The notes beneath the pieces are model-generated. The model searched no databases. It was not told the DNA's origin and worked only from the letters and a program-made list of their open reading frames with translations. Position numbers and translations under genes: made by a program. From a virus (lineage: Duplodnaviria; Heunggongvirae; Uroviricota; Caudoviricetes), in IMG/VR virus record IMGVR_UViG_2690316115_000002: a stretch of 4,704 nucleotides of DNA; one strand, given 5' to 3'. This document shows positions 849 through 1,844 of the stretch, piece by piece (position 1 is the stretch's first letter; each line of letters starts with the position of its first letter).

Positions 849-1844
849 TCAGGACAGCACACCAATCGCCAGCGCGCGATCGATAAAACGAAATATCAGC
901 TCCAGTTGGGAACCATACTTCTCTTCAAATGCCACGGTATCCGCATGCAGTTCGTCATGGTGTTTTCTGCACAAAGGCAACACAAAAAGGTCATGCGCTT
1001 TTGTACCCATTCCACCCTGACCATGACCAATCAGGTGATGAGGATCGTCGGCTGGCTTACCACAACATGCACACGGCTGCGTCTTAACCCAGCGCGTGTA
1101 CTTTTCATTAACCCAGCGACGACGTTTGGGGCGTAACATAAAAGACTCCGGCGACTCCGGATCCACTTTCAGCGCCAGCACCTTTTTCGCCTTATCCCGG
1201 ATGATGCTGGTGGCAGGAACCGAAGGCACAAGGTCACTTTCCCGGGTGACAGACGGCACAACAGGCTTCGGTAATCTCAGTGCCTTACGGGCTGCACTTT
1301 CCGGTAAGGCATCCGCCAGGTCATTACGAACCAGCCACCAGCACAGTTCCGGCATTGTCACAACGTGGCTGTCATCAAAACCGAGATCACGACGGACTAC
1401 GGACAACACCCAGCGGGCACAGTTATCCGTTGCCATTGATTCCAGACGTTCCGTGAACTGATCGCGAAGCAGGTTATCGCAGTGCCAGCACAGACGGATT
1501 GCGCCCGGCGCGTGTCGCATTGTGGTCATGTTCTCGCTGTGCCATCCGGAATGAGGCCACTGGCAGCCTTTTTCACGAAGTAACCAGCTCTCAAGGCATT
1601 CCACACCACCAGCACGACGGATCACCGCCTCATGGCGGAACACGGCCCGAACGGCAGGATCATCCGCCAGCGGTTGTGATGCTGCCGGAACGGCACCACT
1701 GGCAAAAGATGAATAACGTTCCGGCTCAGGCTCCAGCAGGACACGCCCCTGCATAAACAGGGGCATCAGCTCTGAACCGGGTCTGAACAAGACGATCCCC
1801 ATACGCGGGGCAATTTCAGGGGTCAGCAGTGCTCTCACGGTCAC
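849..1844 (-). CDS. Conserved lambdoid prophage protein, probably DUF968/YdfU-like, with a C-terminal Cys/His cluster suggestive of an HNH-like metal-binding module (331 aa)
   Basis: Long minus-strand ORF sitting 17 nt upstream of Q, the same position YdfU holds next to quuQ in the Qin prophage (from memory). C-terminal motif CACCGKPADDPHHLIGHGQGG...LCRKHHDELH. Start is uncertain: GTG at 1844 has a weak SD; the first in-frame ATG is at 1802 with no SD. Confidence 0.7.
   Translation of the reverse strand: MTVRALLTPEIAPRMGIVLFRPGSELMPLFMQGRVLLEPEPERYSSFASGAVPAASQPLADDPAVRAVFRHEAVIRRAGGVECLESWLLREKGCQWPHSGWHSENMTTMRHAPGAIRLCWHCDNLLRDQFTERLESMATDNCARWVLSVVRRDLGFDDSHVVTMPELCWWLVRNDLADALPESAARKALRLPKPVVPSVTRESDLVPSVPATSIIRDKAKKVLALKVDPESPESFMLRPKRRRWVNEKYTRWVKTQPCACCGKPADDPHHLIGHGQGGMGTKAHDLFVLPLCRKHHDELHADTVAFEEKYGSQLELIFRFIDRALAIGVLS

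Follow-up and report, generated by a model that had tools for sequence, protein, structure and literature searches.

What is the protein encoded just ahead of the antiterminator gene Q in so many enterobacterial prophages, and is it a nuclease? The question is raised here by one stretch of Caudoviricetes DNA, 4,704 nt long (IMG/VR record IMGVR_UViG_2690316115_000002; hereafter, the window), which carries on its minus strand a gene of the DUF968/YdfU family (DUF, domain of unknown function). A reading of this stretch made from the sequence alone, without database searches, had described the product as a Cys/His-rich protein, possibly an HNH-like nuclease with a plausible role in DNA processing. 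Our analysis supports that description, with function argued by analogy to better-studied relatives. The window protein is, we think, quite probably an active DNA nuclease, and we lean, with rather less assurance, toward a zinc-stabilized HNH nickase or nuclease acting on recombination or replication intermediates, for which a link to RecA would be optional. The basis for this reading is family membership, a predicted fold, the pattern of conservation, purifying selection, and genomic placement; from these we infer the roles of the metal ligands, the nuclease activity, the DNA substrate, and a dependence on RecA, the last of which we regard as doubtful.

Gene boundaries, family membership, and constraint

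The open reading frame (ORF) is uninterrupted on the minus strand across 849..1844 and encodes 331 amino acids (aa) if counted from a GTG at 1844, the length given by the sequence-only reading. That frame is present, but a second GTG, at 1838, appears the more likely start codon, and the likelier product is 329 aa long. A Shine-Dalgarno sequence precedes this GTG, RefSeq has a 329-aa "DUF968 domain-containing protein" at the identical stretch of a 99%-identical Escherichia coli prophage, and database homologs of the window protein are mostly 329 to 330 aa; the gene is therefore taken as 849-1838, with its stop codon at 849-851. Residues are numbered here on the 329-aa protein (residue numbers in the sequence-only reading are higher by 2).

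849..1838, minus strand: DUF968/YdfU-family gene (329 codons plus stop; RefSeq WP_021517452.1; Pfam DUF968)
1844..1847, minus strand: GAGG Shine-Dalgarno sequence, read from the sequence, 5 nt upstream of the GTG at 1838

The strings previously quoted from this frame (CACCGK, DDPHHLIGHGQGG, and LCRKHHDELH) are all found in the window protein, and its 329 residues include 10 Cys (3.0%) and 13 His (4.0%), in keeping with a Cys/His-rich protein.

Assignment to DUF968, suggested earlier as "YdfU-like," is borne out. The window protein scores 271.3 bits against Pfam DUF968 (PF06147; cutoff, 27.8; E value, 4.8e-81) over profile positions 2 to 171 of 171, the same model matches 38 of 38 aligned homologs, and PHROG_96, labeled "HNH endonuclease," gives a full-length match (E value, 2.7e-175); an NCBIfam scan of the protein returned no match. 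BLASTP aligns it with E. coli K-12 YdfU (b1560; Qin cryptic prophage) collinearly over the full length, at 56% identity over residues 2 to 329 (E value, 2e-143), and YdfU shares its architecture with all Cys/His sites intact. The finding is correct but already known, since the family is cataloged, and Jablonska et al. (2017) placed DUF968 in the His-Me finger superfamily (group 7, with YbcO) and hypothesized a role in recombination (PMC5714182). That the family is functionally uncharacterized, as the sequence-only reading believed, also holds: K-12 ydfU is still on the "y-ome" list, and literature searches for DUF968, PF06147, YdfU, pdcB, and HNHc_6 found no functional study or assay of any DUF968 member.

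Selection was assessed on 74 distinct alleles from 80 viral contigs, each copy 97 to 99% identical to the window gene; copies this close were used for selection and for the analysis of mosaic neighbors, not for diversity. On average, the alleles differ from the window copy by 44 synonymous and 7 non-synonymous changes, none has an internal stop, and the ratio of non-synonymous to synonymous polymorphism (pN/pS) is 0.05: the gene is under strong purifying selection. Constraint is seen in all three parts of the protein, with pN/pS values of 0.066 in N-terminal residues 1 to 190, 0.13 in linker residues 191 to 244, and, lowest of all, 0.018 in the HNH part (residues 245 to 329). Given the Pfam DUF968 score, the full-length PHROG_96 match, and this purifying selection, the ORF is a genuine gene, on evidence far beyond chance.

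The gene also bears marks of exchange. YdfU and the window protein are ~94% identical in their last ~108 residues and only ~45 to 50% identical in the N-terminal two-thirds, YdfU having in addition a linker insertion of ~19 residues, and a mosaic joint falls inside the gene (window 849-~1170 compared with K-12 ydfU, L096 3256-4302). Among close alleles, synonymous divergence peaks in the HNH part (pS of 0.32, versus 0.16 in the N domain). K-12 ydfU likewise lies directly upstream of a Q gene, ydfT, although that Q is of a different length class. The identity step relative to YdfU and the higher pS in the HNH part suggest recombinational exchange within or next to the DUF968 gene, at its boundary with the swappable Q module.

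Relatives are widespread. Megablast recovered DNA relatives of the window gene in 3963 of 5426 complete E. coli genomes (73%), at up to 8 places per genome, and the gene is 98 to 99.8% identical to thousands of annotated database entries. Matches by tblastn include Stx2-converting phages, phage cdtI, and Salmonella ST64B; more remote ones come from phages of Klebsiella, Yersinia, Providencia, and Vibrio as well as from P1 and P7. HMMER, run exhaustively over 1.84 billion cluster representatives, returned 3098 matches at an E value of ≤1e-3, including 100 at ≤1e-30.

The C-terminal HNH domain and its closest relatives

An AlphaFold2 model of the window protein built on 84 homologs (mean predicted local distance difference test, pLDDT, 93.9) predicts a His-Me/HNH fold for the C-terminal 85 residues, with a beta-beta-alpha unit at 265-268, 286-289, and 291-299.

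852..1106, minus strand: C-terminal HNH / His-Me finger domain, residues 245-329
945..1073, minus strand: HNH core, C256-x2-C259...H267-H268...H282-D283...P288...C290-x2-H293-H294-x3-H298

The hallmarks of the HNH superfamily are present in this model, namely the beta-beta-alpha fold, a His ending the first strand, and putative metal-binding residues on the helix. A structural zinc site of the treble-clef CCCC/CCCH type, found in many but not all HNH families, is present at the residue level as well. The sequence-only reading had seen Cys pairs flanking an HH dyad; this describes the first pair, C256/C259, but the second knuckle is C-x-x-H rather than a Cys pair.

Failure of the HH dyad and flanking Cys to be conserved among homologs would have counted against such a metal site. 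Across an alignment of 38 full-length homologs at 25 to 85% identity they are conserved, and the proposal survives that check. C256, D283, and P288 are invariant (38 of 38); among the catalytic candidates, H268 is found in 35 homologs and H267, H294, and H298 in 34 each; among the candidate zinc ligands, C259 is found in 30, C290 in 32, and His or Cys at position 293 in 30. Losses are coordinated. All eight homologs that lack C259 also lack the ligand at 293, six of them lack C290, and all eight retain H267, H268, H294, and H298; conversely, the four homologs without those catalytic histidines retain all four Cys/His ligands. Because each group is lost separately, we set the two apart: C256, C259, C290, and H/C293 would be structural zinc ligands, while H267, H268, H294, and H298 would be catalytic or metal-binding residues, with roles taken from the general HNH mechanism. 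Such coordinated loss is the pattern that a functional HNH site predicts, and together with the predicted fold it supports an HNH-like metal site at the C terminus.

Structure relatives of the C-terminal domain, with their scores, are P1 Ref (3PLW; 78 residues at 26% identity; 8.5), IscB (6.8), YbcO (3G27; 6.4), Cap5 (6.3), EcoKMcrA (5.3), and GVE2 HNH (5.0). At the level of sequence profiles, the window protein just passes Pfam HNHc_6 (PF16784, the PhiNM1 Gp16/phiETA Orf20 type; 26.8 bits against a threshold of 26.6) in a match restricted to the HNH core of that model; it does not match the whole model, which includes an N-terminal NinB/Orf-like domain, and HNHc_6 is matched by 26 of the 38 homologs. 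Against RecA_dep_nuc (PF16786; the Ref family), it scores 11.4 bits, below the cutoff of 26.9 (E value, 0.36). A phmmer search of PDB sequences gave only matches with E values of >0.1, YbcO included (1.2), and the 38-sequence profile found no PDB sequence at an E value of ≤10. YbcO (DLP12 prophage; DUF1364, 3G27) is a 96-aa single domain without an N-terminal domain, and its likeness to the window protein is at the level of the fold only.

Judged by sequence, the best-characterized relative is Gp16 of the staphylococcal phage PhiNM1. A 2026 paper describes it as an early protein in which a NinB-like N domain is joined to an HNH C domain; it binds double-stranded DNA and nicks supercoiled plasmid, and RecA both interacts with it and stimulates it. 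Deletion of its gene severely impairs phage DNA replication and progeny production (PMC12817073). Gp16 scores 389 bits on HNHc_6 and, above threshold, 29.1 bits on DUF968, so that the Pfam matches are reciprocal, and its alignment with the window protein covers 59 residues, 41% of them identical (E value, 2e-10). The two have in common the motif C-x2-C...H...C-R-x-H-H-x3-H and a G-rich loop, with Gp16 residues C145, C148, H157, C181, H184, H185, and H189 corresponding to C256, C259, H268, C290, H293, H294, and H298 of the window protein, respectively. The Gp16 zinc-ligand mutants C148A, C181A, and H184A lose growth inhibition, and C181A is also without nuclease activity in vitro (PMC12817073). 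The Gp16 gene is likewise early and lies near replication and RusA genes in PhiNM1. The HNH nuclease P1 Ref, for its part, cuts DNA only when RecA is bound to it and nicks both strands of a D-loop one after the other (PMC3973344, PMC4330346, PMC4713147).

The N-terminal domain, the P1 PdcB clade, and a proposed mechanism

The sequence-only reading had taken the N-terminal ~230 residues to be Pro/Ala/Arg-rich and without a recognizable motif. This part of the description did not hold, as the region includes a confidently predicted folded domain (pLDDT of >90 in the full model and 92.6 when modeled alone) with a conserved Cys/His site of its own; its composition is L 11%, A 10%, R 10%, V 9%, and P 8%. 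The pLDDT drops to 77 to 81 in the linker that follows.

1269..1838, minus strand: N-terminal globular domain, residues 1-190, of which the Pfam model covers only the last ~30 residues
1473..1565, minus strand: second Cys/His site, C92-Q93...H100...C117-W118-H119-C120-D121-N122
1107..1268, minus strand: linker, residues 191-244, with conserved ESD and VDPE..RPK motifs and invariant K238

Because the Pfam DUF968 model starts at residue 160, the N-terminal domain lies outside the family definition. Its Cys/His site (consensus "C-Q ... C/H ... L-C-W-H-H-D-N") is the best-conserved site of the family, ahead of the HNH site: of 38 homologs, 37 have C92, 33 Q93, 36 Cys or His at position 100, all 38 C117, 37 W118, all 38 His or Cys at position 120, and 35 D121. 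C117 and C120 are predicted to lie where a beta-hairpin (104-109, 112-117) meets a helix (118-124), in a treble-clef-like geometry. A Foldseek search of BFVD with the N-domain model found no match with an E value of ≤0.001. In a profile-profile comparison, the N and C halves align in matching register, but not significantly (E value, 0.058; 8 of 100 block shuffles scored as high), so that an ancient duplication within the protein is a possibility, though an unproven one.

The N-domain site is also retained in all four homologs that lack the catalytic histidines, among them the product of a gene that immediately precedes a P1-type Lpa gene. P1 PdcB and P7 Upf95.7 are full-length homologs at 25 to 27% identity (DUF968 E value, 5e-50) that carry the N-domain Cys/His site and the zinc ligands as in the window protein. 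In both, the HH dyad has become Y-I, the H-x3-H pair has become Q...E, and the G-rich loop is deleted; since all three are lost, P1 PdcB is probably catalytically dead, to judge from its residues, despite its RefSeq label, "HNH endonuclease." Further P1-type homologs (P0187, P0191, and P0261) are without HH dyad, G-rich loop, and H-x3-H pair and keep both Cys/His sites. In P1, P7, and a metagenomic relative, the homolog stands directly before the gene for the late activator Lpa, which is unrelated to Q; P1 pdcB is located downstream of phd-doc, outside any lambdoid early operon. No function is known for PdcB (PMC10695390, PMC10067587).

L095 2860-3903: P1 pdcB, directly upstream of lpa
L002 4001-5044: P7 upf95.7, directly upstream of lpa

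This clade, with its N domain and both Cys/His sites kept and its catalytic histidines gone, would suit a mainly non-catalytic zinc-finger factor that binds DNA or protein in the early-to-late switch, its HNH fold serving as a binding module and nuclease activity being secondary or absent. The better conservation of the N-domain site than of the HNH site would fit such a factor too, as would the gene's place directly before Lpa in these three cases and before Q in at least 66 of 77 enterobacterial loci and 79 of 80 viral contigs. However, adjacency to Q could simply mirror the fixed order of lambdoid modules, and in distant members RusA, lysozyme, or small ORFs intervene before Q. Moreover, the N domain matched no DNA-binding or regulator family in profile and structure searches, all catalytic residues are intact in the window protein and in 34 of 38 homologs, and it is the HNH part that has the lowest pN/pS (0.018). 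For the window protein, we consider a binding factor of this kind very improbable. A related proposal, which we find quite unlikely, is that the N-terminal Cys/His domain forms the core of the family; it may be a second, degenerate treble-clef module of HNH-like type, which would make the protein an intramolecular pseudo-dimer. YdfU and PdcB would then bind recombination intermediates or RecA filaments ahead of the late activator in lambdoid and P1-type phages, with nuclease activity optional and lost in the P1 clade.

Under the reading that we prefer, a zinc-stabilized HNH nuclease, the window protein would be a two-domain, delayed-early phage protein whose C-terminal ~85 residues form the enzyme. 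A structural zinc would be held by C256, C259, C290, and H293; H268, ending the first beta strand, would act as general base; H267, H294, and H298 (the last two being the H-x3-H pair on the helix) would hold a catalytic divalent metal; and a conserved loop at 270-283 (G-x-G-G-M-G-x-K-A-H-D) would complete the active site. The N-terminal ~190 residues, with their site at C92, H100, C117, and C120, may recognize the substrate or a partner. Expression would come toward the end of the early phase, from the rightward early operon, in which the gene follows the replication genes and immediately precedes Q, and the protein would nick or cleave DNA recombination or replication intermediates and so favor propagation of phage DNA. 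Action together with RecA on D-loops or negatively supercoiled DNA is plausible, as P1 Ref and PhiNM1 Gp16 are RecA dependent or RecA stimulated.

Several points weigh against this reading. The function of the window protein, and of the DUF968 family proper, is argued wholly by analogy, and the likeness to Ref and Gp16 is limited to an HNH core of ~60 to 80 residues. Matches to RecA_dep_nuc among the 38 homologs stay below threshold (10 homologs; best E value, 0.013). The disordered basic N terminus of Ref, needed for DNA binding and efficient cleavage, is absent from the window protein, which has a folded Cys/His domain in its stead (Ref, PDB 3PLW; PF16786), and the RecA link of Gp16 may reside in its NinB-like N domain, which the window protein lacks. 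The PdcB clade keeps the architecture without the catalytic histidines, and nuclease chemistry is therefore not the sole selected function. In P1 itself, pdcB is non-essential and dispensable for lytic growth (PMC10695390). Finally, frequent coexistence with RusA means that the DUF968 protein is not merely an alternative junction resolvase.

Gene neighborhood and significance

With a replication module upstream of the DUF968 gene and Q downstream, the window is the nin region of a lambdoid prophage. The sequence-only reading had put the gene in such a region and immediately upstream of Q, and its neighbors confirm both placements, with 17 nt between the DUF968 stop codon and the Q ATG at 831. 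In the closest complete genome, the matching prophage is integrated beside yecN/cmoA.

451..831, minus strand: Q antiterminator gene, directly downstream (PF06530 Phage_antitermQ, E value 6e-53; RefSeq; GGAG Shine-Dalgarno sequence)
1891..2148, minus strand: 85-aa coiled-coil ORF, directly upstream (PHROG_2565, E value 2e-30; RefSeq hypothetical)
2145-3545, minus strand: DnaB-type helicase (Pfam, PHROG, and NCBIfam matches)
3542-4450, minus strand: DnaC-like loader (Pfam, PHROG, and NCBIfam matches)

The 79 Q genes that follow the DUF968 gene in the viral contigs are of the PF06530 (45), PF03589 (32), and DUF1133 (2) types, and the preceding gene encodes a KilA-N protein in 72 contigs and the 85-aa ORF in 8. 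A broader Enterobacterales set of 80 loci from different genomes (50 to 98% identity), drawn from a search with a 15-sequence alignment, has Q as the following gene in at least 66 of 77, of the PF06530 (40), PF03589 (15), and PF06323 (11) types, plus 16 matches to the related DUF1133 model that overlap the PF06530 set to an undefined extent; RusA follows once. The preceding genes there are antirepressors (Rha/ANT; ~34), RusA (15), KilA-N (10), and DNA methylases (10). In distant members, RusA comes directly after the DUF968 gene four independent times; in one other case a VRR-NUC nuclease follows, and in another a small ORF separates the gene from Q. Jablonska et al. described the same neighborhood (RusA, Q, and antirepressor) and fusions of DUF968-type HNH domains with Erf and Rad52 (PMC5714182), and RusA is mentioned by Curtis et al. 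(2014) as well (PMC4118853).

This setting brings up the main alternative, a RecA-independent, structure-specific endonuclease analogous to lambda Rap/NinG (PF05766), which would trim or resolve branched DNA (D-loops, Holliday junctions, or forks) before packaging, with the N domain reading branch geometry. Rap/NinG is a positional analog in the nin region, a predicted His-Me finger protein with branched-DNA endonuclease activity, but it differs in size and architecture and has no detectable sequence relationship to the window protein: none of the 38 DUF968 members matches NinG at an E value of ≤1, and only one matches YbcO/DUF1364 (PF07102), too weakly for membership (E value, 0.16). The families nearest by both sequence and structure, those of Ref and Gp16, are RecA linked, and the routine presence of RusA speaks against redundancy with junction resolution. 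On balance we judge a Rap-like enzyme unlikely.

A role in conflict, as a homing-type selfish HNH or as an enzyme of offense or defense directed at host, competitor-phage, or plasmid DNA (superinfection exclusion or anti-defense), is highly improbable in our estimation. HNH domains often serve in these ways, Gp16 is an inhibitor of host replication with a preference for plasmid DNA (PMC12817073), and the gene is retained in cryptic prophages such as Qin, at up to 8 copies per genome; yet PADLOC defense models gave no family at an E value of ≤0.1, the syntenic position is fixed and free of any intron or intein context, and conservation over the full length, with an extra domain, is unlike that of free-standing homing HNHs. 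Least credible of all is a terminase-associated HNH protein that aids cos cleavage or packaging in the manner of HK97 gp74. An HNH fold in a cos/HK97-type prophage invites the comparison, but the DUF968 gene is an early-region gene before Q, ~4 kb upstream of the cluster in which a separate small HNH gene adjoins the gene for the terminase small subunit (closest prophage, L001 8074-8424; a distant relative, L007 10106-10456), and the window protein is three times the size of a packaging HNH protein; this reading was rejected on gene position. Given that small gene, these phages carry two unrelated HNH proteins, presumably with different roles.

Other features of the window concern the neighboring genes. 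The 85-aa ORF fills the slot occupied by the KilA-N gene in 72 of the 80 related contigs and matches only the final ~83 positions of two PHROG profiles (204 to 229 positions); it may be a truncated gene, though a KilA-N remnant was rejected (BLASTP against the KilA-N protein; E value, 20). An exact 21-bp tandem duplication at 4353-4394 (Tandem Repeats Finder score, 84; 100% match) within the DnaC-like gene at 3542-4450 gives this helicase-loader-like protein two copies of MDELRAE in its N-terminal coiled-coil part. Prophage homology in E. coli genomes ends at 4604, and from the junction at 4604/4605 the window (4605-4704, plus strand) carries the end of an insertion sequence of the IS3 family (IS629-like), whose transposase orfA starts at ~4659; the element disrupts a helix-turn-helix replication-initiator-like gene, of which 4452-4604 (minus strand) is the 3' end, and a 115-nt probe matches at up to 50 places per genome. 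Downstream of Q, two intrinsic-terminator-like hairpins with T tracts (382-362 and 51-34, minus strand), probably terminators of the Q-modified late transcript, flank a 96-aa ORF at 38..328 (PHROG_331, with weak winged-helix matches; the RefSeq version is 65 aa). A simple scan for sigma-70 consensus promoters found none.

As far as the literature searched shows, our analysis adds to the known family a conserved Cys/His domain at the N terminus, zinc and catalytic sites that are lost independently, a PdcB clade that is probably catalytically dead, and an explicit sequence bridge to Gp16. These points refine DUF968 without amounting to a new kind of system. Few uncharacterized prophage genes in Enterobacterales are as widespread as those of the YdfU type, which also occur in Stx-converting phages, and what was a DUF label is now a residue-level map of two separate metal sites, in which the predicted catalytic set matches residues already mutated in PhiNM1 Gp16. 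The comparison with Ref and Gp16 offers the hypothesis of a nickase acting with RecA on D-loops, for which P1 PdcB would be a natural, catalytically dead comparator. If the RecA link is true, most E. coli prophages would carry a Ref-like activity, which would bear on prophage induction, recombination-dependent replication, the biology of Stx phages, and phage-antibiotic synergy.
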